This document shows, one piece after another, positions 45,380-60,364 of a DNA stretch of 64,000 bases (positions are counted from its first letter, which is position 1; every line of letters starts with the position of its first letter). The notes below the pieces were generated by a model. It was not told the origin of the DNA and did not search any database. It saw only the letters and a program-made list of their open reading frames with translations. The position numbers were made by a program, and so were the translations under genes. The DNA is taken from contig PNOF01000006.1 in NCBI GenBank assembly GCA_013824645.1, forward strand, positions 6,029 through 70,028. Direction: 5' to 3'. This DNA comes from Syntrophus sp. (in: bacteria). Its GTDB lineage: Bacteria > Desulfobacterota > Syntrophorhabdia > Syntrophorhabdales > Syntrophorhabdaceae.

Positions 45380-45860
45380 ATTGCGCCTCCCTGGTAATAA
45401 TTTCATCAATAATAGCCGCCGCACGCTGTGAAGTGACTTGGCCGAAGACTTCCTCGTTTATGACCATGGCCGGGGCAAGGCCGCAGGCGCCGAGACAGTT
45501 GACGGTCTCTAAGGTAAAAAGCATATCATCACTTGTTTCCCGTCCATCACCAAGGTTGAGCTTATCGGAGAGCGTTTTATAGAGTCCCATAGACCCTTTC
45601 ACGTGACAGGCAGTTCCATTGCAGATTCTGATAAGATATTTCCCCTTAGGCTTAAGGGTAAAAAGGGAATAAAAAGTAGCAACCCCAAAAACTCTTGCCG
45701 GTGGAATCCCTAATGAGGTAGCAACGAAGGTGAGGATTTCCTCGGGCAGATAACGGTATTCTGCCTGTACGGCCTGTAGGATCGGGATTAAGCGCGAAGG
45801 ATTCCTTCCATTCCGGTCCACAATTTCGCAAACCCTTTCAAATTTTCTCATTGTTTCCAT
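45351..45860 (-). CDS. hydC: NuoE-like [2Fe-2S] subunit
   Basis: LIPILQAVQ..Y.YLP, ICNGTACHVKG and CLGACGLAPAMVIN. The start is uncertain (ATG 45860 or TTG 45869). Confidence 0.85.
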   Translation of the reverse strand: METMRKFERVCEIVDRNGRNPSRLIPILQAVQAEYRYLPEEILTFVATSLGIPPARVFGVATFYSLFTLKPKGKYLIRICNGTACHVKGSMGLYKTLSDKLNLGDGRETSDDMLFTLETVNCLGACGLAPAMVINEEVFGQVTSQRAAAIIDEIITREAQYESDSSRIE

Positions 45861-45874
45861 TCTCGTCAATCTCC

Positions 45875-46543
45875 TTATACTTTGGCCTTTATTATCAGGG
45901 CCAGTTTCTTTGATAGGACAACAAGCGACGAAGCAAGGTTTTCATGCTGAACAATAATTCCTGCCGGGGCAATGACCTTTATAGGGGAAAAATTCCAGAT
46001 AGCCTGAATCCCGGCTTGTACCATATTATCGGCCAATTCCTGTGCTGCATAAGCAGGGACAGTCAGTATACCGATTTTAATACCCATCCGCCGGATCATA
46101 TCGGACAGCTTTTTTACATGAAAGATCGTCTTGCCGCATATTTCCGTTCCCACTTTGCTTTCATCAGCATCAAAAGCGGCGATAATGTTGAGGCCATACT
46201 CCCTGAAACCTTGATATCCAAGCAGGGCCGCTCCCAGATTGCCGGTGCCTACCAGATAAGCGTCTGTGGTATTGTTCCAGCCAAGAAACTCTTCGATAGT
46301 ACCCACAAGTTCCGCCACACTGTAACCCAGCTTTGGTCTGCCCACAGCATCGGTAATTGCCAGATCCTTTCTCACCTGAATGGGGAGCATATTGAGATCG
46401 TTGCCTATTTTCGTACAGGAGATATATTCCGTCTGTTTTTCATCATGCATCTTTTTCAGATATTGATAGTAGACAGGCAGTCTCCTGAGGGTAGGTTCGG
46501 GTATGGGTTTTGTGGGCTGAATCGTTTTCTCGTCTATATTCAT
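45875..46543 (-). CDS. rex: redox-sensing transcriptional repressor Rex
   Basis: 222 aa. IPEPTLRRLPVYYQYL, winged-helix ISCTKIGNDL and Rossmann VGTGNLGAALLGY. Confidence 0.9.
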   Translation of the reverse strand: MNIDEKTIQPTKPIPEPTLRRLPVYYQYLKKMHDEKQTEYISCTKIGNDLNMLPIQVRKDLAITDAVGRPKLGYSVAELVGTIEEFLGWNNTTDAYLVGTGNLGAALLGYQGFREYGLNIIAAFDADESKVGTEICGKTIFHVKKLSDMIRRMGIKIGILTVPAYAAQELADNMVQAGIQAIWNFSPIKVIAPAGIIVQHENLASSLVVLSKKLALIIKAKV

Positions 46544-46610: not shown

Positions 46611-46852
46611 AATTAAAATTATTTTGTCAACATTTTTTTACATTTACATTCTTTGACATTATAAACAAAATACTCTATATTGAAAATTGTGATATATGCT
46701 TTCCCCCGAAGTTATCAAGGGTTGATTCAATTGTGCTGTGAAATGGGACAGGAGGGCCGTGAAAGGACATTGCATTCATCGAGCAACGACCACCGAAAGT
46801 CATCCTATGGCACAGAAAAAACAAAAAAAAGACGAAAGAACGGGCTGACGCT

Positions 46853-47218
46853 ATGAAATTAAAAGAAGTGCAGCAAATTCTCGATGCAGAAGTACTCTGC
46901 GGGGAAGATTGTCTTGAACGTGAGGTCACAACGTGCTTTGCCTGCGATCTTATCAGTGAAATGCTTCTTTATGTAAAACCGCAATCCCTCCTCATTACAT
47001 CGCTTATCAACGCACACGTCATTCACACCGCTCAGGTAATGGACGCAAGCGGTGTTATTTTTGTAGGTGGAAAAAAACCGGATGAAGGGGTCATCAGAAA
47101 CAGCGCAATGAACAATGTCCCACTCCTCACCACTCCACATCCCATATTCGAATGCTGTGGGTTGCTCTTCACAAATGGTATCGAAGGTGACAAAAAAAAC
47201 CCTCTCGGTAGGGACTAA
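46853..47218 (+). CDS. DRTGG-domain protein
   Basis: 121 aa. ACDLISEML......LLITSL.N..VI.TA...D..GVIFVGGK.P and PLLTT blocks, as in DRTGG proteins that precede hydrogenase regulators in Firmicutes clusters. Confidence 0.7.
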   Translation: MKLKEVQQILDAEVLCGEDCLEREVTTCFACDLISEMLLYVKPQSLLITSLINAHVIHTAQVMDASGVIFVGGKKPDEGVIRNSAMNNVPLLTTPHPIFECCGLLFTNGIEGDKKNPLGRD

Positions 47219-47221
47219 CTT

Positions 47222-47683
47222 GTGGTAGACAGTTTACAATATACCCCACAGATTACACTGGAATTCCCTATCGGTGAAAAAGATTTCTTCATGGCTGGAG
47301 AATCCGCATCCCGGGTAAAGAAAACCTTGCAGCAATTGGGCCTCAAACAGGACATCATCCGGAGGGTTGCTATTATTATTTATGAGGCCGCCATGAATGT
47401 TGCAATTCACGCGAGTCACGGACTCCTTACCGTCCATATCGATCCTGAATCAATCTCTATCCAGACAGACGATAAAGGGGTCGGAATACCCGACATTGAA
47501 CTGGCCATGCGGGAGGGCTATTCAACTGCCCCCTATGAAGCACAGGAAATGGGCTTTGGAGCAGGTATGGGACTTCCCAACATGAAACAATGTTCAGATG
47601 AATTAAGTCTTGATACAAAAGTCGGTAAAGGAACTACCCTCAAGGCAAAGGTGTATTTTATTTCTAAAGAACATCCGGGGTAA
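47222..47683 (+). CDS. GHKL-type ATPase / RsbW-like serine protein kinase
   Basis: 153 aa, GTG start. N-box EAAMNVAIHA, G1 DKGVGIPD and G2 GFGAGMGLPNM. Confidence 0.75.
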   Translation: MVDSLQYTPQITLEFPIGEKDFFMAGESASRVKKTLQQLGLKQDIIRRVAIIIYEAAMNVAIHASHGLLTVHIDPESISIQTDDKGVGIPDIELAMREGYSTAPYEAQEMGFGAGMGLPNMKQCSDELSLDTKVGKGTTLKAKVYFISKEHPG

Positions 47684-47694
47684 GGTAGGTACAT

Positions 47695-49059
47695 ATGCCT
47701 CAATACTTTCATTCAGTGACGCTTGACGTTGATAAATGTAAAGGATGCACCAATTGCATCAAGCGGTGCCCCATGGAGGCAATCCGCGTCCACGATGGAA
47801 AGGCAACGATCATGGAGGAGCGCTGTATCGATTGTGGCGAGTGCATCAGATGCTGCCCCAACCATGCAAAAATAGCTCTTACGGATACTATTAAAAAACT
47901 TTCTGAATATAAATATAATATTGCCCTTCCTGCCCCATCCTTTTTCGCACAGTTCAAAGAAAATGAAAATATCAACGACATTCTAAAAGCCTTTCTCCGC
48001 ATAGGGTTCGACGAAGTCTTTGAAGTTGCCCTTGCCGCTGAAATTGTCGCATACATTGTTCACCGGCAGCTCGCAAATAAAAAACTGAAAAAACCCCTCT
48101 TTTCTTCGGCATGCCCGGCTGTGCTCAGGCTTATGCAGATCAAATTCCCCGATCTCCTTAGACAGGTCACCCATGTCCTTACCCCCATGGAAGTGGCAGC
48201 AAGAATCGCAAAAGTTGAAGCGGCAAAAAAAACAAATATCGCCTATGATGATATCGGGGCTTTCTTCATTTCACCCTGCGCTGCAAAAGTGACAGAAATG
48301 AAACAACCCATGACAACAAAACATTCCGCTGTCAACGGTGTCATCGGCGCAAATCTCATATATAAGGATATCGTTAAAAATCTCGGCAAGGGATTGGCCA
48401 ACAACAAAAAGGATAACGAAGATTCGGAAGAGCTTCACAAAGCAACAAAAAACGGAATGGCCTGGGGGTATCTGACAGGAGAATCCAAAAATATCGATTT
48501 CGGTACAACGCTGGCGGTCAGTGAAATTCATAATGTCATCAGTCTCCTTGAGGAAATAGAACGGGGAGAGCTGAAAAATGTCGACTTCATTGAACTGCAG
48601 GCCTGTACTGCCGGATGTGTCGGGGGGCCGCTTAATATTCAGAACAACTTTGTGGGCAGGGTGCATCTGAGAAATTTAATCGGACAATGTGGAGCCAAAC
48701 CGGCTCATTATGCCGAGAAAGAACTCCTTACTATGTACGAAAAGGGACATTTTGAATCCACGGAGCCGATAAGACCCAATGCTATTATGACCCTTGACAA
48801 AGACGTGTCGAAGGCACTCATCAAGATGGAACACCTCGACCAGCTCACGGATGAGCTTCCCGGACTCGATTGCGGCGCTTGCGGCTCTCCGAACTGCAGG
48901 GCTCTCGCTGAAGACATCATCCGTGGCATTGCCTTTGAGACGGACTGTGTTATAAAACTTCGTGACAGGGTAAAAACACTCGCTGAAGAGATATTTGAAC
49001 TGGCACGTATTATTCCGCCTGCAATGGCAGATAATTCGAAAAAGGAAAAGAAAAAGTAA
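47695..49059 (+). CDS. sensory-type [FeFe]-hydrogenase-like protein without PAS (second HydS-like)
   Basis: 454 aa. Two CxxCxxCxxxCP motifs, altered H-cluster motifs SSACPAV / ISPCAAKV / LQACTAGCVGGP, and a C-terminal CGACGSPNCRALAEDI Fe-S motif. Confidence 0.8.
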   Translation: MPQYFHSVTLDVDKCKGCTNCIKRCPMEAIRVHDGKATIMEERCIDCGECIRCCPNHAKIALTDTIKKLSEYKYNIALPAPSFFAQFKENENINDILKAFLRIGFDEVFEVALAAEIVAYIVHRQLANKKLKKPLFSSACPAVLRLMQIKFPDLLRQVTHVLTPMEVAARIAKVEAAKKTNIAYDDIGAFFISPCAAKVTEMKQPMTTKHSAVNGVIGANLIYKDIVKNLGKGLANNKKDNEDSEELHKATKNGMAWGYLTGESKNIDFGTTLAVSEIHNVISLLEEIERGELKNVDFIELQACTAGCVGGPLNIQNNFVGRVHLRNLIGQCGAKPAHYAEKELLTMYEKGHFESTEPIRPNAIMTLDKDVSKALIKMEHLDQLTDELPGLDCGACGSPNCRALAEDIIRGIAFETDCVIKLRDRVKTLAEEIFELARIIPPAMADNSKKEKKK

Positions 49060-49108
49060 GGTTCTATTATAAAAAGCAGCCTATTTGAAAAAATATGGGG
49101 AGGACAGT

Positions 49109-49447
49109 ATGACAATAGCTCAATTAGTCAATGCCCTTGGTCTCGAAGTTCTCACAGGCGACATCAATATGAACAGGGAAATAAAAGCCGGTTATACATC
49201 GGACCTGCTCTCTGACGCCATCGCGAATATCGAAGAGGATTCTGTCTGGATTACTATTCAGAGACATATTAATATCCTCGGTGTGGCAAAGCTGAAAGAT
49301 GCGGCAGCCATTATTATCCCCCGCAACCTCCAGCTTGAAGAAAACGTTATAGAAAAAGCACGTGAGGAGGATATCGCCATTCTGCGATGCCCCCAATCAG
49401 CTTTTGAGATTTCAGGACTACTTTATAATATATTGACAAGAGGTTAA
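49109..49447 (+). CDS. DRTGG-domain protein (second copy)
   Basis: Start at ATG 49109 (GGGGAGG 6 nt upstream). YTSDLLSD...WITIQ.H.NILGVA......AIIIPR....E.VI.KA.EE.IAIL. Confidence 0.7.
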   Translation: MTIAQLVNALGLEVLTGDINMNREIKAGYTSDLLSDAIANIEEDSVWITIQRHINILGVAKLKDAAAIIIPRNLQLEENVIEKAREEDIAILRCPQSAFEISGLLYNILTRG

Positions 49448-49453
49448 TATAGG

Positions 49454-50185
49454 GTGGGGGATTTTTCCTGCGATCTTCATATCCACTCAACATTGTCGCC
49501 TTGCGGCAGCTTGGAAATGTCTCCAAATAAGATCGTTGAAAAAGCTGTCGAGATTGGTCTTCATGTCATTGCAATTACCGATCACAATATGACGGAGAAT
49601 AGCTTCTATGTCCGTGAAGCAGCAAAGAAATATGGTCTTATTGTTCTGTGCGGAATGGAACTGCAGACCCGTGAGGAAATACATCTCATCACGGTTTTTG
49701 ATGATTTTGAGGTTGCCCTTGACTTCCAACAAAGGATCTATCGTCTTTTACCTGACGTCAAAAATGATCCTGAATACTTCGGAGATCAGGTTATTGTTGA
49801 CACAAAGGATGAAATCCTCCATAGCGAGGAAAGACTCCTTTTAAACTCCGTAGAAATCTCTATCGAGGATGCTGTAAGCTGGGTCAAATCACATGGTGGG
49901 CTGGCAATCCCAGCGCATATCGACAGCCCGACCTACAGTATCATCAGCCAGCTTGGCTTTGTGCCGGACAATATCCCCTTTGATGCACTTGAGGTGCGGA
50001 ATATTGAAAAAGCAAAGGACCTTTTGCCTCTTATTATGTTAAAAAACATCCCCTTTGTGAGCTTTTCCGATGCCCACTACATCGCAGATGTAGGGCGGAG
50101 AAAAACCCAATTACACATGGAGAAACCCGATTGTCAGGAAATAGGTCAGGCGCTAAAGGCCCTCGGAGCAGAAAGACATGATTAG
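49454..50185 (+). CDS. PHP-domain metal-dependent phosphoesterase
   Basis: 243 aa. DLHIHSTLSPCG, AITDHN, the H...E region and AHID / SDAH motifs. Confidence 0.8.
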   Translation: MGDFSCDLHIHSTLSPCGSLEMSPNKIVEKAVEIGLHVIAITDHNMTENSFYVREAAKKYGLIVLCGMELQTREEIHLITVFDDFEVALDFQQRIYRLLPDVKNDPEYFGDQVIVDTKDEILHSEERLLLNSVEISIEDAVSWVKSHGGLAIPAHIDSPTYSIISQLGFVPDNIPFDALEVRNIEKAKDLLPLIMLKNIPFVSFSDAHYIADVGRRKTQLHMEKPDCQEIGQALKALGAERHD

Positions 50186-50215
50186 AAGACTAATATCAGT
50201 TACCGGTAATTGCTT

Positions 50216-50761
50216 ATGATGGATGAAATTTCTTCCCATATCATGGATATTGCCGCCAATGCCATAACGGCAAAGGCAAAGCATATCGAAATTTCCATCA
50301 TGGTAGACACAAAAAAATCTCTCACAACATTATTTTTCAAAGACGATGGGATTGGGATGAACGATGAAATGGTCAAAAAGGTCCAGGACCCTTTTTTCTC
50401 AACAAAAACAGGAAAAAAAGTAGGTCTCGGCATCCCACTTTTAAAAGGCACTGCAGAAACGACAGGAGGAACTTTCTCTCTGACGAGTGAGCTCGGCAAG
50501 GGAGTGGAGATACAGGCCTCTTTCCGCCTCAATCACCCCGATCTTCCGCCTATCGGCAAACTGAAAGATACCATCCTGGTCCTTGTAGTGGGAAACCCGG
50601 AAATTGATTTCGCCTTTAGATATGCTGTTGATAAAAGTGAATTTATATTCGATACAACAATTATCAAAGGTCTCCTCGATGGGGTGCCCGTTAACCATCC
50701 GGAGGTAGTGAATTTCATCATGAATTATCTTGACGAGCATCTGCAAAATCAGATAGATTAG
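50216..50761 (+). CDS. GHKL ATPase-domain protein (second copy)
   Basis: DIAANAI (N-box-like), DDGIGM (G1), FFSTK......GLGIPLLK (G2), GGTF.L.SE.GKG. The track ORF starts at TTG 50210. Confidence 0.7.
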   Translation: MMDEISSHIMDIAANAITAKAKHIEISIMVDTKKSLTTLFFKDDGIGMNDEMVKKVQDPFFSTKTGKKVGLGIPLLKGTAETTGGTFSLTSELGKGVEIQASFRLNHPDLPPIGKLKDTILVLVVGNPEIDFAFRYAVDKSEFIFDTTIIKGLLDGVPVNHPEVVNFIMNYLDEHLQNQID

Positions 50762-50788
50762 AGGTTCAGTCAAAAAGGAGGGCTCTCC

Positions 50789-51148
50789 ATGAATTTAGAA
50801 GAACTCAAAAAAATCAGGGAAAAAGCACAAAAAGATGTTGAGTTGAGACAGAAAGGGTCGAGGATACGTATTGTCGTCGGTATGGGCACAAGCGGCATCG
50901 CCGCAGGCGCCAGGGACGTGTTGAAAGCATTCGTCGAAGAGATCAGCCGGAGAAATTTAAACGACGTTATCGTTACCCAGACAGGGGAGCGGGGCCTCGC
51001 CTCACAGGAACCCATGGTTGAGGTATTCGAGGAAGGAAAACCTGTCGTGGTCTATGGAAATATAACTGTTGAAAAAGCAAAACGGCTCATCGCTGAACAC
51101 GTGGTAAACGGCAACCCGGTCTCTGAATACGCAATTGAAGTAATGTAA
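50789..51148 (+). CDS. HydD-like thioredoxin-fold protein lacking all four [2Fe-2S] cysteines
   Basis: 119 aa. IRIVVGMGTSGIAAGA...VTQTGERGLASQEPMVEV aligns with the C...C ... C...C pattern kept in the NuoF-GltD N-terminus (VLVCAGAACVSSG...ETGCIGSCDLGP), but has G, S, E and A at the ligand positions. Confidence 0.7.
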   Translation: MNLEELKKIREKAQKDVELRQKGSRIRIVVGMGTSGIAAGARDVLKAFVEEISRRNLNDVIVTQTGERGLASQEPMVEVFEEGKPVVVYGNITVEKAKRLIAEHVVNGNPVSEYAIEVM

Positions 51149-51163
51149 AGGAGGTTATCTTCC

Positions 51164-51622
51164 GTGGATAAAGAGGCAATCCTAAAAAAATTCAAACCGA
51201 CTCTCGATAATATATTGTATATTCTCCATGATCTCCAGGATGAAAATCCCCAGCATTATCTCAGCAAGGATGACATAAAGGTGTGTGCTGATTATCTTAA
51301 TATTCCCTATAGCTATACACATAGTGTTGCAAGTTTTTATACCATGTTCAGCATGAAACCGAGGGGCCGCAATATCATTCGCCTCTGTGACTCTCCCCCC
51401 TGCCATTTAATGGGATCAAAATCACTTCTTGACTATCTGCAGCGCACACTGAAGGTAACGACCGGTGAAACAACCAAAGACGGTATATTCACCCTGGAGT
51501 TGACGAGCTGCCTCGGAGCATGCGGGGTTGCACCGGCCATGATGGTTAATAACGAAATGTTCGGCAATCTTACACCGGAAAAGGTTGACACCATCTTGGA
51601 TAAGAGGAGAAAAGAACTATGA
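51164..51622 (+). CDS. NuoE-like [2Fe-2S] subunit
   Basis: 152 aa, GTG start. LCDSPPCHLMG and CLGACGVAPAMMVN. Confidence 0.85.
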   Translation: MDKEAILKKFKPTLDNILYILHDLQDENPQHYLSKDDIKVCADYLNIPYSYTHSVASFYTMFSMKPRGRNIIRLCDSPPCHLMGSKSLLDYLQRTLKVTTGETTKDGIFTLELTSCLGACGVAPAMMVNNEMFGNLTPEKVDTILDKRRKEL

Positions 51623-53199
51623 ACCGCGTAAGAAACCATGTACTGATAAGTATCGACGCAGGTACTATTATGGCAGGGGCCCGCGCAGTCGAAAAAGCCC
51701 TTACAGAGGAGATTGTAAGGCAGGGACTTTCCGATGAAATTACCGTTCTGGAAACAGGGAGCATCGGAGCAACCGGTCAGGGAGTCATCATAGTCGTGTA
51801 TCCCGAAGGCGTCTATTACGGAAACGTAACCGTTCAGGATATACCGCAACTTGTCGAAGAACACCTTCTGAAGGGACGCCTGGTGAAAAGGCTCCTCCTC
51901 TCGGAACTGCCGAAACAGCATGTTGTTACCAAAGAGAAGACAGGTCTCCTGAAAGAACAGCCCCGAATCGTACTCCGCAACAGTGGTATCATCGACCCTG
52001 AAAATATCGACGAATATATCGCACGGGAAGGGTATGAAGCTATCGGAAAGGCCTTTTCCCTCAAGCCGGAAGGTGTCATTGAGGAAATAAAAAAATCAGG
52101 ACTCATAGGCCGTGGAGGGGCAGGATTCCCAACAGCCATGAAATGGGGTTTTGCCCATAATGCCCCCGGTGATCAAAAATATATCATTTGTAACGCCGAC
52201 GAGGGAGAGCCGGGCACTTTCAAGGACAGACTTATTCTTGAAGGAGATCCCCATAAACTAATTGAGGGAATGATAATAGCTGGCTATGCTATTGGAGCAA
52301 CAAAAGGTTTTATATACATACGAGGTGAATACTCGCTCTCTATCGAACGCCTTGAGAAGGCCATTGCTCAGGCCCGTCAGTATGAGCTTCTTGGCGACAA
52401 TATTCTTGAGAGCGGTTTTTCCTTTGATCTTTCTGTTATGAAGGGCGCCGGTGCTTATGTCTGCGGTGAAGAAACGGCACTCATAGAATCCCTGGAAGGA
52501 AAAAGGGGCCATCCACGCCTTAAACCCCCTTTCCCAGCCATAGCAGGACTCTGGCACAAACCGACTGTTGTCAATAACGTGGAGACATTGGCTAACATAC
52601 CGGAAATTATCTGGCGCGGCGCCACATGGTACAGGGGGTACGGAACCGAAAAGTGTCCTGGTACAAAAGTCTACACGATTATCGGCAATGTGGCGACACC
52701 GGGAATCATCGAAGCGGAAATGGGGACCACGCTCCGCGATATTATTTATGAATATGCCGGCGGTATCAAGGAAGGCAAAAAATTCAAATGCGCCCTCGTT
52801 GGCGGAGCAGCAGGCGCTTTTCTTGGTCCTGACATGCTTGATGTCCAGATGGATTTCGCCAACCTGAAAGAATACGCAGCAGTACTCGGCTCCGGGGCAA
52901 TTCTTGTCATGGATGAAGATGCTGATATTGTTGATATGCTGCAAAGCGTCCTCCATTTTTTCAAACACGAATCCTGCGGTCACTGCGTGCCCTGCAGGCT
53001 CGGTACTGCCCAGCTTGTAAAGGTTATTGACCGCATCGCGGCTTCAAAAGGAATAAAAGAAGATATCGAAAAACTGTCCAATATTTCCGATGTTATGCGG
53101 GACACATCATTCTGTCCGCTGGGACAGTCACTCTGTCTTCCCATCTCCAGCGCATTAAAATACTTTCATGATGAGGTCTATGCCCGGATTCCATTATAA
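51619..53199 (+). CDS. NuoF-like flavoprotein subunit, short form
   Basis: 526 aa. GLIGRGGAGFPT, NADEGEPGTFKD and SCGHCVPCRLGT. The N-terminal thioredoxin-like domain has no Cys (LISIDAGTIMAG...ETGSIGATGQG). There is no C-terminal 2x[4Fe-4S] domain. ATGA overlap with the upstream gene. Confidence 0.85.
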   Translation: MNRVRNHVLISIDAGTIMAGARAVEKALTEEIVRQGLSDEITVLETGSIGATGQGVIIVVYPEGVYYGNVTVQDIPQLVEEHLLKGRLVKRLLLSELPKQHVVTKEKTGLLKEQPRIVLRNSGIIDPENIDEYIAREGYEAIGKAFSLKPEGVIEEIKKSGLIGRGGAGFPTAMKWGFAHNAPGDQKYIICNADEGEPGTFKDRLILEGDPHKLIEGMIIAGYAIGATKGFIYIRGEYSLSIERLEKAIAQARQYELLGDNILESGFSFDLSVMKGAGAYVCGEETALIESLEGKRGHPRLKPPFPAIAGLWHKPTVVNNVETLANIPEIIWRGATWYRGYGTEKCPGTKVYTIIGNVATPGIIEAEMGTTLRDIIYEYAGGIKEGKKFKCALVGGAAGAFLGPDMLDVQMDFANLKEYAAVLGSGAILVMDEDADIVDMLQSVLHFFKHESCGHCVPCRLGTAQLVKVIDRIAASKGIKEDIEKLSNISDVMRDTSFCPLGQSLCLPISSALKYFHDEVYARIPL

Positions 53200-53237
53200 G
53201 GATCAAAACACCCCTTAAGGAGGTTAAGTTCCGGTAA

Positions 53238-55007
53238 ATGATTAAGACGAAAATAAATAATGTTGATGTGGAGACGCCGGAAGGAACCAGTATCCTCTGG
53301 GCCGCACGAAAGGCTGGCTTCAACATCCCCACACTCTGTCAACATCCCGATCTTGTTCCCGGAGGACAATGCGGGATTTGTGTCGTTGAAATCGAAGGTG
53401 TACCGGGGCTGAAACGGTCCTGCATGACACCTGTCGGAGAGGGATTTACAGTCCGCACCCATACGCAGAGGGTCATGACCGTAAGAAAACAGCTCGTGGA
53501 ACTCATCCTCTCCAATCATGACACCGACTGCCTTACCTGCATAAAAAATAACAGCTGTGAATTGCAAAAGCTTGCCGCAACACTGGGGGTTGATACCCTG
53601 GAATATCCAAAATTCGAGGAAAAGCTGCCCATCGACAAAACCAGCGTTTCCATTGTGCGCGACCCTAACAAATGCATCCTCTGCGGGAGATGTACCCAGG
53701 TATGTTCCGATATCCAGACAGTAAATGCCCTGGCGATAAACAACAGGGGATGCGACACGGTCATCACAACCGCCTTCGATGCCGGTCTCGGAAACAGTGT
53801 CTGTATCAACTGCGGTCAATGCGTTGTGCATTGCCCCGTTGGCGCCCTCTACGAAAACAGTCAGATTGAGCAGGTCTGGGAAGCGCTCCACGACCCCGAT
53901 AAATTTGTCGTCGTTCAGGAAGCCCCTGCAGTAAGGGTCATGCTCGGCGAGGAATTCGGCATGCCTCCAGGTTCCCTTGTAAGCGGCAAGATGCACGCTG
54001 CCTTGCGCCGGCTCAACTTCGATGCTGTCCTTGATACCAATTTCGCCGCCGACCTTACCATTATGGAAGAAGGCACAGAACTCCTATCAAGACTTACATC
54101 GGGCAAGAACCTGCCTCTTATCACGAGTTGCAGCCCCGGATGGATCAAGTTTATGGAGACCTTCTATCATGACATGATCCCCCATATGTCGACAGCCAAA
54201 TCACCACAGCAGATGTTCGGTACTCTCTCAAAAACATATTACGCACAACAGAAAGGTATTCCGCCTGAAAAGATCGTTTCCGTGTCTATTATGCCATGCA
54301 CGGCAAAGAAATTCGAGTGTCAGCGGCCGGAAATGAACATAAGTGGATATCAGGATGTGGACTACGTACTCACCACCCGTGAGATCGGCCGTATGATGAG
54401 AGAAGCCGGGATCGATCTCAAAGAAATGCCCGACGAACCCGCCGATGACATAATGGGCGATTACACCGGAGCGGGCACCATTTTCGGCGCCACAGGCGGC
54501 GTCATGGAAGCAGCCATCAGGTCAGCCTATTTCCTCGTCACCGGGCGGGAACTCGAAAATCTTGATGTTATTCCGGTAAGAGGCTTAAAGGGCATCAAAG
54601 AGGCTGAGATCGATATTGACGGCACAAAAGTAAAGGTTGCCGTTGCGCACAGTTGTGGAAAAGCAAGGGAACTTATGGATAAGGTCGCAGCACAGCTTGA
54701 AAAAGACGGAAAATGTGAATATCAGTTTATTGAAGTCATGGCCTGTCCCGGCGGATGCGTCGGCGGCGGCGGTCAATCATGGGGCAGCAATATGGCAAAG
54801 AGGGCTCGTAGGGGCGAATCACTCTACGAAGAAGATAAATTAATGCCTCACCGGCGGTCTCACGAAAACCCTTCTGTCCAGGCCGTATATGAGAAATTCC
54901 TGGGGAAACCGAACTCGGAAAAATCCCATAAACTTCTCCATACACACTATTATAAAAGGAGTACTGTTGACGGTAAGGTTTTACCGGAAAACAAAATATC
55001 AGAGTAA
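53238..55007 (+). CDS. hydA: [FeFe]-hydrogenase catalytic subunit, paralog 2
   Basis: 589 aa. NuoG-like N-terminus and 2x ferredoxin motifs. H-cluster motifs ITSCSPGW (not TSCCP), MPCTAKKFE and EVMACPGGCVGGGGQ. Confidence 0.9.
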   Translation: MIKTKINNVDVETPEGTSILWAARKAGFNIPTLCQHPDLVPGGQCGICVVEIEGVPGLKRSCMTPVGEGFTVRTHTQRVMTVRKQLVELILSNHDTDCLTCIKNNSCELQKLAATLGVDTLEYPKFEEKLPIDKTSVSIVRDPNKCILCGRCTQVCSDIQTVNALAINNRGCDTVITTAFDAGLGNSVCINCGQCVVHCPVGALYENSQIEQVWEALHDPDKFVVVQEAPAVRVMLGEEFGMPPGSLVSGKMHAALRRLNFDAVLDTNFAADLTIMEEGTELLSRLTSGKNLPLITSCSPGWIKFMETFYHDMIPHMSTAKSPQQMFGTLSKTYYAQQKGIPPEKIVSVSIMPCTAKKFECQRPEMNISGYQDVDYVLTTREIGRMMREAGIDLKEMPDEPADDIMGDYTGAGTIFGATGGVMEAAIRSAYFLVTGRELENLDVIPVRGLKGIKEAEIDIDGTKVKVAVAHSCGKARELMDKVAAQLEKDGKCEYQFIEVMACPGGCVGGGGQSWGSNMAKRARRGESLYEEDKLMPHRRSHENPSVQAVYEKFLGKPNSEKSHKLLHTHYYKRSTVDGKVLPENKISE

Positions 55008-55039
55008 ACGCATCGCATATGAAATAAGGGAGGAAGAAG

Positions 55040-55537
55040 ATGGCCGCCGAAAATCAATGTAACTGTGTCCAGACACAGGAAGAAGATCTCTACCCGAGAC
55101 TGAATGAGATCATTGGTGAACATAAAGGAAAACCGGAAGACCTCATAATGGTACTCCATAAAGCACAGAACCTTTTCGGTTATTTACCGAAAAAGGTACA
55201 GGAAATGGTCGCCGAAGGCTTAAATATGTCCATCAATGAGGTATATGGCGTCATTACCTTTTATAATTTCTTCTCCACGGTCCCGCAGGGAAAGCACAGC
55301 GTAAAGGTCTGTCTGGGGACAGCCTGTTATGTTCGTGGGTCCCAGAAGGTCCTTGAGAAAACAGAGAAAGCACTGGGTATCAAGGTTGGTGGAACAACAG
55401 ATGACAGAAGATACTCCCTTGGTGTGGTCCGCTGTATCGGGGCATGTGGTCTCGCCCCTGCCATGCTGGTCGATGAAGATGTCTATGGTCGTGTAAAAAC
55501 AACAAATGCCATGGAAATAATAGAAAAGTACGAGTAA
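55040..55537 (+). CDS. NuoE-like [2Fe-2S] subunit (third copy)
   Basis: 165 aa. VCLGTACYVRG and CIGACGLAPAMLVD. Confidence 0.85.
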   Translation: MAAENQCNCVQTQEEDLYPRLNEIIGEHKGKPEDLIMVLHKAQNLFGYLPKKVQEMVAEGLNMSINEVYGVITFYNFFSTVPQGKHSVKVCLGTACYVRGSQKVLEKTEKALGIKVGGTTDDRRYSLGVVRCIGACGLAPAMLVDEDVYGRVKTTNAMEIIEKYE

Positions 55538-55552
55538 GGAGGGTCAAACACA

Positions 55553-58500
55553 ATGGATGTATCGCGCGCGCACGTCTTGGTTTGTGCTGGAGCTGCATGT
55601 GTCTCTTCCGGTTGCCGCGACATAAGAGATGCAGTTGTTAATAACATACTGGAAAAGGGATTGCAGAATGAGGTAAAGGTTATCGAAACCGGCTGCATCG
55701 GTTCCTGCGACCTGGGCCCTCTGGTCCTCATCTACCCTGAAGGCGTACTCTATCAGAAATTAACGCCGGCTGATGCTGAAGAGATTGTGGCAGAACACCT
55801 GCTGAAGGGGAGAATTGTAGATAGGCTCCTTTATAAAGAACCTGTCAGCGAAAAGGCAATCCCCTCCCTGAAAGAGATGGATTTCTTTAAGAGTCAGGTA
55901 AAGATCGTCCTTCGCAACTGTGGTGTCATCAACCCTCTCAACATTGAAGAATATATCGGTCGTGACGGCTACCTGGGCCTTGGAAAATCTCTCACGGAAA
56001 TGACCCGTGAGCAGGTCATTGATGAAGTCCTCAAATCGGGACTCCGTGGACGGGGCGGCGGCGGGTTTCCTACCGGCATTAAATGGAAGTTTGCCCACCA
56101 GTCACCTGGCGATGTGAAATATGTGGTCTGTAATGCCGATGAAGGCGACCCCGGCGCATTCATGGATAGAAGCGTTCTCGAAGGCGATCCGCACAGCGTC
56201 ATCGAGGCTATGGCCATTGCAGCATACGCAATCGGAGCGCAGCAGGGCTACATTTATGTCCGCGCCGAATATCCCCTCGCAATAGAACGGCTCAACTGGG
56301 CCATCGGTCAGGCACGGGAATATAAATTATTAGGAAAAAATATCCTCGATAAGGGGTTCAATTTTGATCTCGAGATCAGGATCGGCGCAGGAGCATTCGT
56401 CTGCGGTGAAGAAACAGCGCTCATGATGTCCATTGAAGGAAAGAGGGGTGAACCGAGACCAAGGCCTCCTTTCCCGGTTGTAAAGGGTCTTTTCAATGTG
56501 CCGACACTACTCAACAACGTTGAAACCTATGCCAATATACCCGCCATCATCGTTAATGGCGCCGCTTGGTATGCCCAATACGGGACAGAAAAAAGTAAGG
56601 GAACAAAAGTCTTTGCCCTCGCCGGAGCTGTCAATAATACCGGTCTCGTGGAAGTACCCATGGGGACACCACTGGGAGATATCGTCTTTAATATCGGCGG
56701 CGGCATCAAGGACGGAAAGAAATATAAGGCGGCACAGCTCGGTGGACCATCGGGCGGTTGTATTCCCATTCAGCACATCAATGTGCCCGTGGATTACGAA
56801 TCGGTTGCCGAACTAGGCGCCATTGTAGGATCAGGCGGCCTCATCGTAGCCGATGAAGACACCTGTATGGTAGATTTTGCCCGTTTCTTCCTCGATTTTA
56901 TCCAGCATGAGTCTTGCGGTAAATGCCCTCCCTGCCGCATCGGCACGAAGAGGATGCTTGAAATACTGAAACGGATTACCCGGGGAGACGGAAAACCAAC
57001 GGATATCGACGATCTTATCGAACTCTCTACCCGTATTAAGGACTCGGCCCTATGCGGTCTTGGCCAGACAGCGCCCAATCCGGTACTCTCTACCTTGAAA
57101 TTTTTCAGGAACGAATATATAGAACATATCGAAGATAAACACTGTAGCGCCGGTGTTTGCAGCGCCCTATTTGACGCGCCGTGTCAGAACGCATGCCCGA
57201 CAGACCAGAACGCCTGGGGCTATGTAACCCTTATCAGCGAAGGAAGATTCAAAGAAGCGATTGCCCTTATCAAGGAAGCTAATCCCTTCCCGGCTGTTCT
57301 CGGACGTGTCTGTGTACACCCCTGTGAGGCGAAATGCCGCCGGGGCCAGATTGACGAGCCTGTCGGTATCTGCGCATTGAAACGGTTTGTCGCGGATACG
57401 GACATGAATTCCTTCCCTCCATACCGGCCCCCTGTCGAACAACCGAAAGACAAGAAAGTGGCCGTTATCGGCGCCGGTCCCGCAGGCCTTTCCGGTGCTT
57501 ACTTCCTTGCTCTCAAGGGATATAAAGTAACTGTTTTCGAAGCATTACCGGTAGCAGGCGGCATGCTCGCCGTAGGAATCCCCGATTATCGTTTGCCGAA
57601 AGTGATCCTTAATACAGAAGTAAAAGCCATTACCGATCTTGGCGTGGAAATTAAATATAACATACGTCTCGGAAAAGATATTACAACAGGAAAGCTCTTT
57701 ACCGAAGGGTACAGTGCTATCCTTATGGCAACAGGCGCCCACCAGGGCCAAAAACTTGGCATTCCTGGCGAGCAGTCAGGCGGCGTTATCGATGGCGTTA
57801 CCTTCCTCCGGAATGTTAACCTAAAAGAGACAACAAAGGTTGAAGGGAAAGTGGTCGTTATCGGTGGTGGCAATGTGGCAATAGATGCGGCACGTTCAGC
57901 GCTCAGACTTGGCGCTGACGAAGTTTCCATTCTCTACAGAAGACAAAAAAACGACATGCCCGCATACAAGGAAGAAATTGAGGATGCTGAAAAAGAAGGC
58001 ATCAAAATCCATACCCTTGTTGCCCCCAACAAGATTGTCACAAAAGACGAAAAGGCAATAGGCATCGAGTGTATCCGCATGAAACTGGGAAAATTCGACA
58101 AAGGCGGTCGCCGTATCCCCGAGCCGGTAAACAATTCCGATTTTATTATCAATGCCGACATGGTTATTGCAGCCATCGGTCAGAGCCCTGATCTGTCCCA
58201 TCTGGACGGGAATGGCATTAAGGTTTCTAAAAACGGCACCATTGAAGCAAACGTAAAAACCCTTGCAACGGATATGGACGGAATCTTTGCTGCAGGTGAT
58301 GCTGTGCGCGGTCCCGCCACAGCCGTTGAAGCTGTCGCAGATGGGAAAAATGCTGCCCTGACAATCGACAAATTCCTGGGCGGTGAAGGGCAACCGATGA
58401 ACGCGTTCCGCGATGAGCTTTTACAACTACTGGTCACCTACAACGAAACTGAGTACCAGAAAGAAAGGGCCAAGGTCGAAATGCCCCATCTTCCTGTGAC

Positions 58501-58606
58501 AAAACGAAACATGAATTTTAACGAAGTTGTTCTCGGTTATTCGGCCAACGCTGCCGTAGAAGAGGCAAAGCGATGCCTGCACTGTTATTTGCGTGAAAGC
58601 GAGTAA
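55553..58606 (+). CDS. NuoF-like flavoprotein fused to a GltD/NfnB-like FAD/NAD(P)H oxidoreductase
   Basis: 1017 aa. Cys-complete 2Fe-2S N-domain, GLRGRGGGGFPTG and SCGKCPPCRIGT. It then has a GltD-type Fe-S region (CQNACP...VCVHPCEAKCRR), GAGPAGLSGAYFLA (FAD), VIGGGNVAIDAA (NAD(P)H) and a GD motif AAGD. Confidence 0.85.
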   Translation: MDVSRAHVLVCAGAACVSSGCRDIRDAVVNNILEKGLQNEVKVIETGCIGSCDLGPLVLIYPEGVLYQKLTPADAEEIVAEHLLKGRIVDRLLYKEPVSEKAIPSLKEMDFFKSQVKIVLRNCGVINPLNIEEYIGRDGYLGLGKSLTEMTREQVIDEVLKSGLRGRGGGGFPTGIKWKFAHQSPGDVKYVVCNADEGDPGAFMDRSVLEGDPHSVIEAMAIAAYAIGAQQGYIYVRAEYPLAIERLNWAIGQAREYKLLGKNILDKGFNFDLEIRIGAGAFVCGEETALMMSIEGKRGEPRPRPPFPVVKGLFNVPTLLNNVETYANIPAIIVNGAAWYAQYGTEKSKGTKVFALAGAVNNTGLVEVPMGTPLGDIVFNIGGGIKDGKKYKAAQLGGPSGGCIPIQHINVPVDYESVAELGAIVGSGGLIVADEDTCMVDFARFFLDFIQHESCGKCPPCRIGTKRMLEILKRITRGDGKPTDIDDLIELSTRIKDSALCGLGQTAPNPVLSTLKFFRNEYIEHIEDKHCSAGVCSALFDAPCQNACPTDQNAWGYVTLISEGRFKEAIALIKEANPFPAVLGRVCVHPCEAKCRRGQIDEPVGICALKRFVADTDMNSFPPYRPPVEQPKDKKVAVIGAGPAGLSGAYFLALKGYKVTVFEALPVAGGMLAVGIPDYRLPKVILNTEVKAITDLGVEIKYNIRLGKDITTGKLFTEGYSAILMATGAHQGQKLGIPGEQSGGVIDGVTFLRNVNLKETTKVEGKVVVIGGGNVAIDAARSALRLGADEVSILYRRQKNDMPAYKEEIEDAEKEGIKIHTLVAPNKIVTKDEKAIGIECIRMKLGKFDKGGRRIPEPVNNSDFIINADMVIAAIGQSPDLSHLDGNGIKVSKNGTIEANVKTLATDMDGIFAAGDAVRGPATAVEAVADGKNAALTIDKFLGGEGQPMNAFRDELLQLLVTYNETEYQKERAKVEMPHLPVTKRNMNFNEVVLGYSANAAVEEAKRCLHCYLRESE

Positions 58607-58639
58607 CATCCCTTCATGGGCCGACAAGGAGCGTGAGCT

Positions 58640-60364
58640 ATGATGATAAGCTTGACCATAGACGGTCGTAAAATAGAGGCCGAGCAAGACACAACTATTC
58701 TTGACGCTGCCAGAGAGGCAAAAATACATATACCGACGCTGTGCTACCTCCCGGAGGTCCAGGCCATAGGCGCCTGCAGAGTCTGTCTCGTGGAAATAGA
58801 AGGTAACCGCGTGTTGCAGGCATCCTGCATCTTACCGGTCAGTCCGGGTCTTGTGGTCCTTACAAATACGGAACGGGTGAGAAAAGCACGGAGGTTTGCC
58901 GTTGAGATGCTCCTCTCCAACCATCCCTTTGAGTGTCTTACCTGCGCCCGAAACCTCAACTGCGAACTCCAGAGTCTCGCCACGGATCTTTGTGTCCGGG
59001 ACATCCGTTTTACCGGTGATAAGAGCGAAGGCCGTATTGATGAGTCTTCCCCCTCTATCAGACGGGACCAGAACAAATGTATCCTCTGCCGCAGATGTGT
59101 TACCGTCTGTCAGGAAATACAGAGTGTCACCGCCCTGCATTTACAGGGAAGAGGTTTTGGCACGCGGGTTGAGCCGGCATTCGACAGAGACATAAATGAT
59201 GTGGCCTGTACAAACTGCGGACAGTGTTCCCTTGTCTGTCCCGTGGGCGCCATCACTGAAAAGGAATACATTAAGGAAGTATGGGATGCCATCAATGACC
59301 CCACAAAATTTACCGTTATCCAAGATGCCCCTGCAGTCAGGGTTGCCCTTGGTGAAGAATTCGGCTATCCTCCCGGTACACTGGTAACGGGAAAAATGCT
59401 TGCAGCAGCCCGGAAACTCGGTTTCGACCGAATCTTCGATACAAACTTCGCGGCAGACCTGACAATCCTCGAGGAGGGCAGTGAACTTTTACAAAGGGTA
59501 AAAGAAGGCGGTATACTCCCCCTTATCACGAGCTGCAGCCCCGGATGGATCAAGTTTATTGAACATTTTTATCCCGAAATGCTCCCCAACCTCTCTACCT
59601 GCAAATCTCCGCATCAGATGCTGGGAGCCCTCACGAAAACCTATTATGCCAAGAAAATGGGTATTGATCCCAAGGATATGATTGTTGTCTCTGTCATGCC
59701 CTGCACGGCAAAAAAATTCGAGTGTCAGAGACCTGAGATGAGGTCCAGCGGATATCAGGATGTTGACTATGTGCTCACCACACGGGAACTTGCAAAGATG
59801 ATAAAACAGGCTGGCATCGATTTTGAAAACCTTGATGACGGCAGCTATGATGACCCCATGGGCGAATACACCGGCGCTGCAACGATTTTCGGCGCCACAG
59901 GCGGCGTCATGGAAGCTGCCCTCCGTACAGCCTATGAAGTGGCAACAGGTAAAACCCTTGAAAGTGTTGAATTCACCGCTGTCCGGGGCCTCGAAGGCAT
60001 AAAGGAAGCGGTCATTCCCATTGAAGGCATAGGCGATGTCCGCATCGCAGTATCGCACGGTCTCGGTAATGCACGAAAGCTCCTCGAGAGGGTAAAGGAA
60101 GGCAAAGAGCAGTATCACTTCATTGAGATCATGGCCTGTCCCGGCGGATGTGTCGGAGGCGGCGGCCAGCCCTTCCCTGTTAATAATGATGTGAGAACAC
60201 GGAGAGCACAGGCGCTCTACGCGGAAGATTGTTCCCTCACCTTGAGAAAATCTCACGAAAGCCCATCAGTCAAAAAACTTTACGAAGAATTTCTCGGAGC
60301 GCCGCTTGGTGAAAAATCACATCACCTACTCCACACGAAGTACACACCGCGGAGCAGGTTCTGA
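58640..60364 (+). CDS. hydA: [FeFe]-hydrogenase catalytic subunit, paralog 3
   Basis: 574 aa, collinear with paralog 2 (for example VMPCTAKKFECQRPEM, GYQDVDYVLTTRE, IFGATGGVMEAA). Again has ITSCSPGW, plus EIMACPGGCVGGGGQP. Confidence 0.9.
   Translation: MMISLTIDGRKIEAEQDTTILDAAREAKIHIPTLCYLPEVQAIGACRVCLVEIEGNRVLQASCILPVSPGLVVLTNTERVRKARRFAVEMLLSNHPFECLTCARNLNCELQSLATDLCVRDIRFTGDKSEGRIDESSPSIRRDQNKCILCRRCVTVCQEIQSVTALHLQGRGFGTRVEPAFDRDINDVACTNCGQCSLVCPVGAITEKEYIKEVWDAINDPTKFTVIQDAPAVRVALGEEFGYPPGTLVTGKMLAAARKLGFDRIFDTNFAADLTILEEGSELLQRVKEGGILPLITSCSPGWIKFIEHFYPEMLPNLSTCKSPHQMLGALTKTYYAKKMGIDPKDMIVVSVMPCTAKKFECQRPEMRSSGYQDVDYVLTTRELAKMIKQAGIDFENLDDGSYDDPMGEYTGAATIFGATGGVMEAALRTAYEVATGKTLESVEFTAVRGLEGIKEAVIPIEGIGDVRIAVSHGLGNARKLLERVKEGKEQYHFIEIMACPGGCVGGGGQPFPVNNDVRTRRAQALYAEDCSLTLRKSHESPSVKKLYEEFLGAPLGEKSHHLLHTKYTPRSRF

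Follow-up and report, generated by a model that had tools for sequence, protein, structure and literature searches.

A NuoF–GltD fusion in place of HydB in one of two tandem [FeFe]-hydrogenase units of Syntrophus sp.: a candidate hydrogenase for NAD(H) and NADP(H)

The stretch of DNA analysed here, called the window in the following, comprises 64,000 nucleotides (nt) of Syntrophus sp. (assembly GCA_013824645.1, contig PNOF01000006.1, positions 6,029–70,028, forward strand). Between window positions 46853 and 60364, 13 co-directional genes were found on the plus strand, with intergenic gaps of −4 to 38 nt. Their order, based on Pfam and NCBIfam, is DRTGG–HATPase_c_2–HydS-like–DRTGG–PHP–HATPase–HydD-like–NuoE1–NuoF1–HydA1–NuoE2–NuoF::GltD–HydA2. 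The region 53238–60364, which encodes two [FeFe]-hydrogenase catalytic subunits (HydA), a NuoE-type protein and a fusion of NuoF with a GltD-type module, is the 3′ half of this single operon of ~13.5 kb (about 46.85–60.36 kb). A promoter-like site, in which 11 of 12 positions were matched, lies in the divergent intergenic region at 46653–46681. No convincing terminator was detected up to position 60364, nor a credible one inside the operon.

An initial annotation of this region had described two HydA flanking NuoE and the fusion. The four open reading frames (ORFs) were found as it gave them (53238–55007, 55040–55537, 55553–58606 and 58640–60364), all on the plus strand and 15–33 nt apart. The gene order was confirmed as well, but not the grouping: judging from 20 related loci and from locus L012, two hydC-hydB-hydA units in tandem describe the interval better. 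Unit 1 (51164–55007) consists of the NuoE-type HydC1 (51164–51622, 152 amino acids (aa); 2Fe-2S_thioredx, 1e-46) with all four cysteines of the C1 [2Fe-2S] cluster, the NuoF-type HydB1, here called NuoF1 (51619–53199, 526 aa), and the catalytic subunit HydA1 (53238–55007, 589 aa; Fe_hyd_lg_C, 5e-98). The genes hydC1 and hydB1 overlap by 4 nt. Unit 2 (55040–60364) consists of the NuoE-type HydC2 (55040–55537, 165 aa; Pfam, 1e-50) with C1 [2Fe-2S] ligands Cys91/96/132/136, the 1017-aa fusion (55553–58606) and the catalytic subunit HydA2 (58640–60364, 574 aa; Fe_hyd_lg_C, 2e-100). HydA1 belongs to NuoE1–NuoF1 and not to the fusion, and HydA2 belongs to NuoE2 and the fusion, because NuoE–NuoF::GltD–HydA recurs as a unit elsewhere, because locus L001 shows the same order and because L012 has the two units swapped.

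When analysed with Pfam, the fusion was found to contain 2Fe-2S_thioredx (residues 3–81), Complex1_51K (160–330), SLBB, NADH_4Fe-4S (441–525), Fer4_20 (532–619) and Pyr_redox_2 (634–931). Its HydB2 part (aa 1–540, 55553–57172) is followed by the GltD module (aa 541–1017, 57173–58606). Residues 4–543 match residues 4–545 of the 599 residues of A. woodii HydB (7q4v_B) with 795 bits, and this homology stops right past the Zn hinge, at fusion residue ~543. Ligands of the N-terminal [2Fe-2S] cluster (B5), which sits in a thioredoxin-like domain, are Cys11/16/48/52, and those of the B1 [4Fe-4S] cluster in the four-helix bundle are Cys455/458/461/501. Candidates for the Zn hinge (B2), assigned by homology, are Cys438/His525/Cys531/Cys536; the Zn site of HydB is formed by three Cys and one His (PMC9499530). 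The fusion further carries the signatures DPGAFMD at the NADH site, GAGAFVCGEE (with Phe282) and GGPSG in the SLBB domain, all of the electron-bifurcating (BF) type.

A canonical HydB is encoded on the minus strand of the same window (43484–45424, 646 aa), with a C-terminal 2x[4Fe-4S] domain (Fer4 dicluster, residues 588–641; clusters B3/B4). In a three-way alignment with NuoF1, canonical HydB and the fusion are homologous through ‘EH.(x)DK.C..G.C.AL’ / ‘H..C....C.AL’ and then split. Past this point, canonical HydB continues into two CxxCxxCxxxCP motifs and the fusion into the ‘APCQNACP…’ of the GltD module. The replacement of the C-terminal 2x[4Fe-4S] domain by a GltD/NfnB-type module, as initially proposed, is thus borne out by the alignment and by Pfam. 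Compared to canonical HydB, only B3/B4 is removed, and a chain of two [4Fe-4S] clusters, flavin adenine dinucleotide (FAD) and NADP(H) occupies the same covalent position past the Zn hinge.

Canonical HydB shares with the fusion the N-terminal [2Fe-2S] cysteines, DPGAFMD, the Phe of GAGA(F/Y)VCGEE, GGPSG, the B1 cluster and the Zn-hinge ligands. NuoF1, in contrast, was found to be in the non-bifurcating state at every diagnostic position, following the sequence criteria for non-BF HydB of Losey 2020 (PMC7311640) and Schut 2022 (PMC9304861). Its alignment shows CNADEGEPGTFKDR and EPGTFKD, GAGAYVCGEE with Tyr, and GGAAG in place of GGPSG. The N-terminal cluster cysteines, the Zn-site residues and the C-terminal domain are all absent, the protein ends before the hinge, and flavin mononucleotide (FMN) and B1 are its only predicted cofactors. 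The initial annotation had recorded the NuoE–NuoF set upstream of HydA1. This set is present, but it is not a mere spare copy, as NuoF1 is a HydB of the non-bifurcating type. Judged by sequence, unit 1 resembles the Syntrophomonas wolfei type of non-bifurcating [FeFe]-hydrogenases that use NADH only. With this type it shares the missing C-terminal and N-terminal clusters, the Tyr, EPGTFKD and the lack of GGPSG. It differs from that type in that NuoF1 retains a Cys-less thioredoxin-like domain and is closest overall to Bfu-type HydB (594 bits to 7t2r_B). The comparison, made here on sequence, holds for unit 1 only and not for the fusion.

The GltD module of the fusion features seven cluster cysteines (Cys544/548/587/591/595/1008/1011), which together with Lys610 would ligate two [4Fe-4S] clusters. 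It also has an FAD site (G640xG642xxG645, Arg680) and an NADP(H) site (GGGNVAxD, 771–778; Y795-R796-R797; M802-P803-A804). In a sequence search against the PDB, the best matches were C. saccharolyticus NfnA (9bov_A, 441 bits), S. ovata StnC (8oh5_C, 402 bits) and an archaeal NfnA (9n5u_A, 387 bits), followed by T. maritima NfnB (4ylf_B, 315 bits), P. furiosus NfnL (5jca_L, 291 bits) and GltD (6s6s_G, 243 bits). The tail of the fusion (aa 977–1011, 58481–58585; ‘…NFNEVVLGYS…EEAKRCLHC’) aligns to NfnB residues 8–42. Since the last ~40 residues thus align to the N-terminus of NfnB, the module is circularly permuted. The segment ‘NF.EV.LGY…EA.RCLxC’, which holds two cluster cysteines, opens NfnB but forms the extreme C-terminus in the fusion, in StnC and in NfnA. 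This shared permutation suggests a single evolutionary origin of the Stn-type and the HydB-fused modules. In its cofactor set (NADPH, FAD, 2x[4Fe-4S]), its Lys ligand and its permuted Cys pair, the module is, by sequence, of the Stn/NfnABC type and not of the NfnB type.

The initial annotation had suggested a genome search for the fusion and its neighbours. Species-representative genomes were scanned with the peptides CNADEGDP and GAFMDRSV; at least 600 stretches matched, and the best 80 loci (L numbers) were analysed. Full-length fusions with a conserved junction were obtained 58 times, from 57 of these 80 loci, and together with the window copy they form a set of 59 fusions with identities of 44–76%. 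The B1 and Zn-site residues are conserved in all 59, as are Phe282, G397, G398, P399 and G401, while S400 is found in 54. The positions of Phe282 and of GGPSG lay outside the search patterns. The N-terminal C11 and C16 are present in just 39 of the 59; in S. ovata StnB and C. saccharolyticus NfnB, the N-terminal Cys are likewise lost and the site holds Zn. Within the module, the seven cysteines, the FAD GxGxxG and Arg680 occur in 59/59 and the NADPH motifs (GGGN..D and YRR…MPA) in 58–59/59. The initial view that one polypeptide would carry FMN, FAD and a second nucleotide site is in line with these values. At position 610, Lys was found 49 times, His 10 times and Glu never. This eighth ligand is Glu in the bifurcating NfnB and Lys170 in StnC, whose FAD is a non-bifurcating, plain two-electron entry point for NADPH (PMC10482914).

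The fusion architecture is widespread and not rare, with more than 100 protein clusters and with representatives in more than ten phyla. Lineages include Deltaproteobacteria, Firmicutes, Bacteroidales, Chloroflexota, Spirochaetes, Verrucomicrobiota, Acidobacteriota, Omnitrophota, Armatimonadota, Nitrospiraceae and Atribacteria, as well as two archaea, one of them a Lokiarchaeon. In a collection of 5.8 billion proteins, the best 120 matches shared the same Pfam set at 66–96% identity and were 1008–1033 aa long, apart from five shorter, truncated entries. Syntrophorhabdaceae, Syntrophobacterales, Syntrophus, Peptococcaceae and Desulfotomaculum are among their source names. Of the named relatives, those from Syntrophorhabdaceae and Deltaproteobacteria metagenome-assembled genomes (MAGs) come closest, at 82% identity; other database proteins reach 94%. 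Total match counts carry little information, as ordinary NuoF and GltD proteins dominate them. In a representative library clustered at 50% identity, ~12 full-length fusion clusters were present among the top 150 matches (including P0121, P0122, P0127, P0131, P0133 and P0134). The family is therefore taxonomically broad, but its sequence space is not huge. No NCBIfam equivalog model exists for the fusion, and its best scores remained under the cut-offs.

A separate group of proteins of ~635–665 aa (P0174, P0178, P0188, P0190, P0192, P0201, P0218, P0233, P0255 and P0258) matches the fusion from residue ~400–420 on. These proteins comprise the NuoF four-helix [4Fe-4S] bundle and the GltD module without the FMN domain, and may be an intermediate, or else an architecture of their own that is related to the fusion.

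Upstream of the fusion, nearly all related loci carry a NuoE gene. The fusion is directly followed by a complete HydA in 20 loci (Deltaproteobacteria, Firmicutes, Bacteroidales, Spirochaetes, Verrucomicrobiota, Omnitrophota, Armatimonadota and Nitrospiraceae), and HydA is the partner of NuoE and NuoF::GltD in 22 loci. What recurs is a unit of NuoE–[small genes]–NuoF::GltD–HydA. The eight-gene order of the window is also that of locus L001 (a Deltaproteobacteria MAG with 76% identity), whereas L012 contains both units in reversed order; in the window, L001 and L012, the fusion unit adjoins a complete short non-BF E-F-A unit. Genes for a histidine kinase-like protein (HK), the 119-aa HydD-like protein, PHP and HydS often accompany HydB genes in related loci.

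Other loci showed other partners. Molybdopterin/formate-dehydrogenase-like subunits were verified with Pfam in L021, L007, L023 and L015 (including Dehalococcoidia and Desulfobacterales). HoxU/NuoG-N-like proteins of 225–275 aa occur in ~13 loci, among them several Acidobacteriota; they were verified in L049 (10001–13770; Promethearchaeota archaeon Loki_b31) and L060, where the partner has 236–237 aa. NuoG-N plus FAD-oxidoreductase proteins are found in L039 and L032. NuoE and NuoF::GltD thus form a modular pair, which in L049, L060, L021, L007 and L039 is found without any hydrogenase. Three loci from distant lineages, L027 (8840–17279; uncultured bacterium), L041 (7894–15609; Verrucomicrobiota) and L058 (10294–17743; Atribacteria), have the order NuoE–NuoF::GltD–NuoE–short non-BF NuoF–HydA with gaps of 0–50 nt. 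The single HydA for two E-F pairs hints that NADH-only and NADPH-bearing modules serve the same HydA, and the two may assemble on one hydrogenase.

HydA1 and HydA2 are collinear paralogues with 56% identity over 576 residues, as the initial annotation had it. Both contain Fe_hyd_lg_C, the small-subunit domain, Fer2_4, NADH-G_4Fe-4S_3 and two Fer4 domains (Pfam), and both exceed the cut-offs of TIGR02512 and of NF040763 (‘NADH-dependent [FeFe] hydrogenase, group A6’; cut-off 765 bits), the latter with 852.6 bits for HydA1 and 922.9 bits for HydA2. They are thus catalytic subunits of group A [FeFe]-hydrogenases. The L1 motif, in place of TSCCPxW, is TSCSPGW in HydA1 (aa 296–302; 54123–54143) and in HydA2 (aa 297–303; 59528–59548). 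L2 is MPCTAKKFE and L3 is E.MACPGGCVGGGG in both, the latter reading EVMACPGGCVGGGG in HydA1, and the F-cluster Cys are intact. In a plain alignment, the Ser of TSCSPGW aligns with the cluster-ligating Cys300 of CpI. The possibility that this motif marks an inactive HydA-like protein was ruled out, as the active, structurally solved A. woodii HydA1 (7q4v_A; 742 bits to HydA2) has the identical motif. TSCSPGW is also present in most HydA adjoining Bfu-type HydB and is, for these two reasons, a natural variant. HydA2 is predicted to be catalytically competent. A neighbour-joining tree of 41 HydA showed no separation by HydB partner type. HydA1 and HydA2 each have their own orthologue in L001, and their duplication is therefore older than that split; the HydA1 orthologue there likewise follows a 526-aa non-BF HydB.

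Based on these comparisons, unit 2 was placed relative to characterised systems. With HydABC/Bfu enzymes (A. woodii 7q4v/8a5e, T. kivui 8a6t, T. maritima 7p5h), it shares the hydC-hydB-hydA order, an FMN/NAD(H) site with BF-type residues (A202, M204, Phe, GGPSG), B1, the Zn hinge, B5 and C1 in HydC2, besides the high scores of HydA2 and the fusion against A. woodii. However, the C-terminal B3/B4 domain, which forms the ferredoxin site and is among the features that define the Bfu family (PMC9304861), is replaced by the NADP(H)/FAD/2x[4Fe-4S] module of ~475 aa, and no Fer4 dicluster follows the hinge. Because this domain is missing, unit 2 was not filed as a canonical BfuABC member.

StnABC/NfnABC (Nfn-Bfu) enzymes (S. 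ovata 8oh5, C. saccharolyticus 9bov, archaeal 9n5u), which are ferredoxin-dependent NADH:NADP+ transhydrogenases, also combine a HydBC-like core with a GltD/NfnL-like NADPH module, and theirs is the most similar to that of the fusion. In those enzymes, the module is inserted in a catalytically dead NuoG/Fdh-like A subunit, whereas in unit 2 it extends the B subunit at the C-terminus. Stn moreover keeps B3/B4 in StnB, uses ferredoxin and lacks a hydrogenase, while the A subunit of unit 2 is a complete, true HydA; the cluster is therefore not an Stn transhydrogenase. NfnAB (NfnSL) and GltD share with the module the fold, the cofactor set and the FAD and NADPH motifs. They differ in the Glu ligand in place of Lys/His, in the position of the permuted N-terminal segment and in not being fused to NuoF, and the operon encodes no FNR-like NfnA/S partner. 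C. autoethanogenum HytA-E/FdhA and D. fructosovorans Hnd are multimeric, related to HydABC and tied to NADP(H) by assay or name (PMC6288185). Their nucleotide, however, reacts at the NuoF/FMN site, ferredoxin is the second partner and an FAD/GltD module is lacking. One fusion homologue (P0081) is nevertheless auto-annotated as ‘HndC’.

The closest category in HydDB is [FeFe] group A2, ‘glutamate synthase-linked (putative)’, defined by genetic linkage between a HydA of group A and a GltD-type protein. Its function is listed as undetermined (PMC5037454), and a 2026 scheme calls it ‘functionally uncharacterised’. The A2 rule demands that the protein directly downstream of HydA has GltD ‘but not NuoF’ (PMC5037454). 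Here, the GltD-bearing protein is also a NuoF; it is encoded by the second gene after HydA1, upstream of HydA2. The fusion type is thus excluded from A2 and falls in A3; the downstream-gene rule is in addition inapplicable, because hydA comes last in this gene order. The 2026 scheme scans two genes on each side and tests glutamate-synthase domains first. It would call both HydA ‘A2’ whereas HydDB leads to A3, which makes the classification ambiguous. The initial annotation had allowed for a known and characterised hydrogenase subgroup. The type is indeed widespread and seen by HydDB, although lumped in A3, but neither a description or characterisation of a NuoF-GltD HydB nor a characterised enzyme with this exact subunit set was found in open-access full text.

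The gene structure, domain architecture, cofactor motifs with their conservation, synteny and similarity to solved structures given above are direct observations. From them, we infer an electron path, a stoichiometry and an energetic coupling for unit 2. Current family models place bifurcation at the B1-FMN-C1 site, with low-potential electrons carried by the mobile C1 domain to B3/B4 and from there to ferredoxin (PMC11829005, PMC9499530). As B3/B4 is swapped for an NADP(H)/FAD module, it is most economical to assume that NADP(H) substitutes for ferredoxin. Unit 2 would then couple H2 to two nucleotides, NAD(H) at FMN and NADP(H) at FAD, a proposal to which we give about an even chance. H2/H+ turnover would occur at the H-cluster of HydA2, electrons would pass through the HydA Fe-S chain to the B1-FMN-C1 site, and NAD(H) would react at FMN. 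The branch that normally ends at ferredoxin would end instead at FAD and NADP(H). The overall reaction would be NADH + NADPH + 2 H+ <-> 2 H2 + NAD+ + NADP+, with NADP(H) as the lower-potential partner. A coupling of H2 to both NADH and NADPH had already been suggested in the initial annotation, and it remains the best-supported interpretation of the sequence.

Equilibrium H2 pressures were calculated with E′ values of −280 mV for NADH and −380 mV for NADPH, the in-vivo values quoted in PMC9304861. They amount to ~3 Pa for NADH alone, ~145 Pa for NADH + NADPH, ~7 kPa for NADPH alone and ~15 kPa for NADH + ferredoxin. H2 at 10–1000 Pa hence falls between the two nucleotide couples, as is required for bifurcation or confurcation. 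The BF marks of the fusion are also not mere phylogenetic inertia, because NuoF1 of the same operon shows the opposite state at every such position.

Several points weigh against a coupled NADH/NADPH enzyme. Coupling to NADH is not thermodynamically required, because NADPH alone works up to ~7 kPa H2, and the gap between NADH and NADPH is just ~100 mV, which is small for a bifurcating system. Ferredoxin could also bind elsewhere. A202 and M204 (criterion of PMC9304861) are conserved in 59/59 and 58/59 fusions, respectively, but count for less because they lie inside the search peptides, so that their conservation is partly forced. An AlphaFold2 model of the fusion, built on a 13-sequence alignment, reached a mean predicted local distance difference test (pLDDT) score of 54 and a predicted template modelling (pTM) score of 0.42. 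It is too poor for placing the GltD clusters relative to C1/B5 or the HydA chain.

The competence of NADPH alone up to ~7 kPa is also what a simpler enzyme would exploit. Unit 2 might be a plain non-bifurcating hydrogenase, NADPH-dependent or promiscuous for NAD(P)H, with the GltD-FAD as NADPH port and FMN as a relay or an independent NADH site without coupling. In that case, the tandem would provide two valves to H2, one for NADH and one for NADPH. This is a serious alternative, though an unlikely one. It agrees with the simple two-electron entry at the homologous Stn FAD (PMC10482914), with the absence of the ferredoxin-binding B3/B4 that defines bifurcating members and with the non-bifurcating type of the neighbouring unit 1. 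Metabolic reconstructions of syntrophs also name an ‘NADPH-dependent FeFe hydrogenase’ (bioRxiv 10.1101/2021.07.06.451242). Such a relay-only FMN domain would, however, not be expected under the constraint observed. The NuoF core keeps the signatures that separate BF from NADH-only enzymes in 54–59 of the 59 fusions, C11/C16 (39/59) being the exception, and Phe282, GGPSG, DPGAFMD, the Zn hinge and C1 are retained throughout, all of which NuoF1 has lost.

An intact bifurcation-type core would equally suit a four-substrate hybrid of hydrogenase and Stn-like enzyme, in which ferredoxin docks at the outer GltD cluster, at HydA or at the N-terminal HydB cluster. In NfnAB, the binding site of ferredoxin is presumed to lie close to the distal [4Fe-4S] cluster in the subunit with the GltD fold (PMC5861303). 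Loci in which NuoE and NuoF::GltD are found with minimal 236-aa NuoG-N/HoxU-like partners (L049, L060) point in the same direction: their complexes would otherwise handle NAD(H) and NADP(H) only, and need a third partner to exceed a plain transhydrogenase. For unit 2, we consider the hybrid improbable. The operon encodes neither a ferredoxin nor a ferredoxin-like domain, the dedicated ferredoxin site of the family is exactly the deleted part, and the ligand of the FAD-proximal cluster is Lys/His instead of the low-potential Glu of NfnB.

The same ligand bears on the second option of the initial annotation, a GltD-type FAD that bifurcates as in NfnB and replaces or supplements FMN. Fold family (315 bits to 4ylf_B, where the FAD does bifurcate) and the invariant R680, the equivalent of R201 in NfnL, fit this option. 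It is nonetheless disfavoured, and in our view very unlikely, because of the Lys/His ligand and the Stn-type affinity of the module, which is nearer to StnC/NfnA (402–441 bits) than to NfnB and has their permutation. The FAD of StnC is non-bifurcating despite the same Arg, the NuoF core itself carries the BF signatures, and no NfnA/NfnS-type partner is present for a high-potential branch. That the 1017-aa ORF is an assembly or frameshift artefact joining two genes, for which only L058 (an Atribacteria MAG with the protein split into ORFs of 620 and 370 aa) could be cited, is refuted by the comparative data, namely the uninterrupted ORF, 59 full-length copies from independent assemblies with the junction conserved, the mostly 1008–1033-aa lengths of the best 120 matches, the full-length clusters in the 50%-identity library and the invariant C-terminal Cys pair that completes the GltD cluster.

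The genes upstream of unit 1 (46853–51148) are separated by gaps of 3–27 nt. All on the plus strand, they encode DRTGG (46853–47218), HATPase_c_2 (47222–47683), a HydS-like sensory [FeFe]-hydrogenase homologue of 454 aa with a ‘Putative Fe-S cluster’ domain (47695–49059), a second DRTGG copy (49085–49447), a PHP phosphoesterase (49454–50185), a ‘HisK-like’ protein with HATPase_c only (50210–50761) and a ‘HydD-like’ protein of 119 aa (50789–51148), assigned with Pfam and NCBIfam. The latter has a thioredoxin-like [2Fe-2S]-ferredoxin fold (weak NCBIfam match, 1e-10). It contains no cysteine at all and therefore cannot hold a cluster. In many related operons, homologues are encoded between NuoE and HydB, and the position of the window protein is that of the ‘hydD’ gene, which the Bfu papers place outside the holoenzyme.

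The canonical hydrogenase operon (41451–46543) runs on the minus strand, divergent to the plus-strand operon. It is headed by a Rex-type regulator (45875–46543, Pfam), followed by canonical HydC (45351–45869, Pfam), the canonical HydB described above and canonical HydA (41451–43487; Pfam, translation), which has TSCCPAW as L1 motif and a C-terminal [2Fe-2S] domain. All three NuoE/HydC proteins of the window retain the four cluster cysteines. A search with the Rex operator consensus yielded four matches compared to 3.75 expected, which does not exceed chance, with none in the promoter region, and an Rfam scan of the window gave zero matches. A second HydS-like sensory homologue (39731–41539, minus strand, 602 aa) also has a ‘Putative Fe-S cluster’ domain. 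Five Fe_hyd_lg_C genes are thus found within 21 kb, three for catalytic HydA and two for HydS-like homologues. Each HydS-like sensor adjoins phosphatase- or kinase-like genes, SpoIIE (38575–39759) in one case and PHP, HATPase_c, HATPase_c_2 and two DRTGG in the other. Directly downstream of the minus-strand hydrogenase and sensor genes, an aldehyde dehydrogenase (35124–36716) and an AMP-binding acyl-CoA ligase (36920–38497) are encoded on the minus strand; they may form a substrate-oxidation context for the hydrogenases.

With H2-sensor-like HydS homologues beside both operons, it can be speculated that the three hydrogenases of the window cover three ranges of H2 pressure. If so, these would extend to ~3 Pa with NADH, ~145 Pa with NADH + NADPH and ~15 kPa with NADH + ferredoxin. 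More tentatively, and with less confidence than in the coupling itself, NuoE and NuoF::GltD might form a general, phylum-spanning ‘two-nucleotide’ Bfu core in which NADP(H) stands for ferredoxin, serving here as the middle ‘gear’ of three hydrogenases. Together with HydA, such a core would be the first hydrogenase that confurcates NADH and NADPH without ferredoxin; where the partners are formate-dehydrogenase-like or minimal, formate or other couples would be handled in the same manner.

Neither the HydDB groups A2 and A3 nor NCBI naming has a category for the fusion type, and its labels vary between ‘NuoF’, ‘hydrogenase’, ‘FAD-dependent oxidoreductase’ and ‘HndC’. Electron splitting at the single FMN of HydABC/Bfu enzymes is debated, and all current models give the mobile C-terminal ferredoxin domain a central role. 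In the fusion, this domain is removed and a two-electron NADP(H)/FAD port is attached while the other BF-type features are kept, in many lineages and with several catalytic partners. If NADH and NADPH are indeed coupled to H2 by unit 2, bifurcation in the Bfu family would proceed without ferredoxin, and a cleaner experimental system would become available, because all substrates are soluble and can be followed optically. The coupling would also explain in what way syntrophs and fermenters get rid of NADPH and NADH as H2 when the H2 pressure is intermediate.

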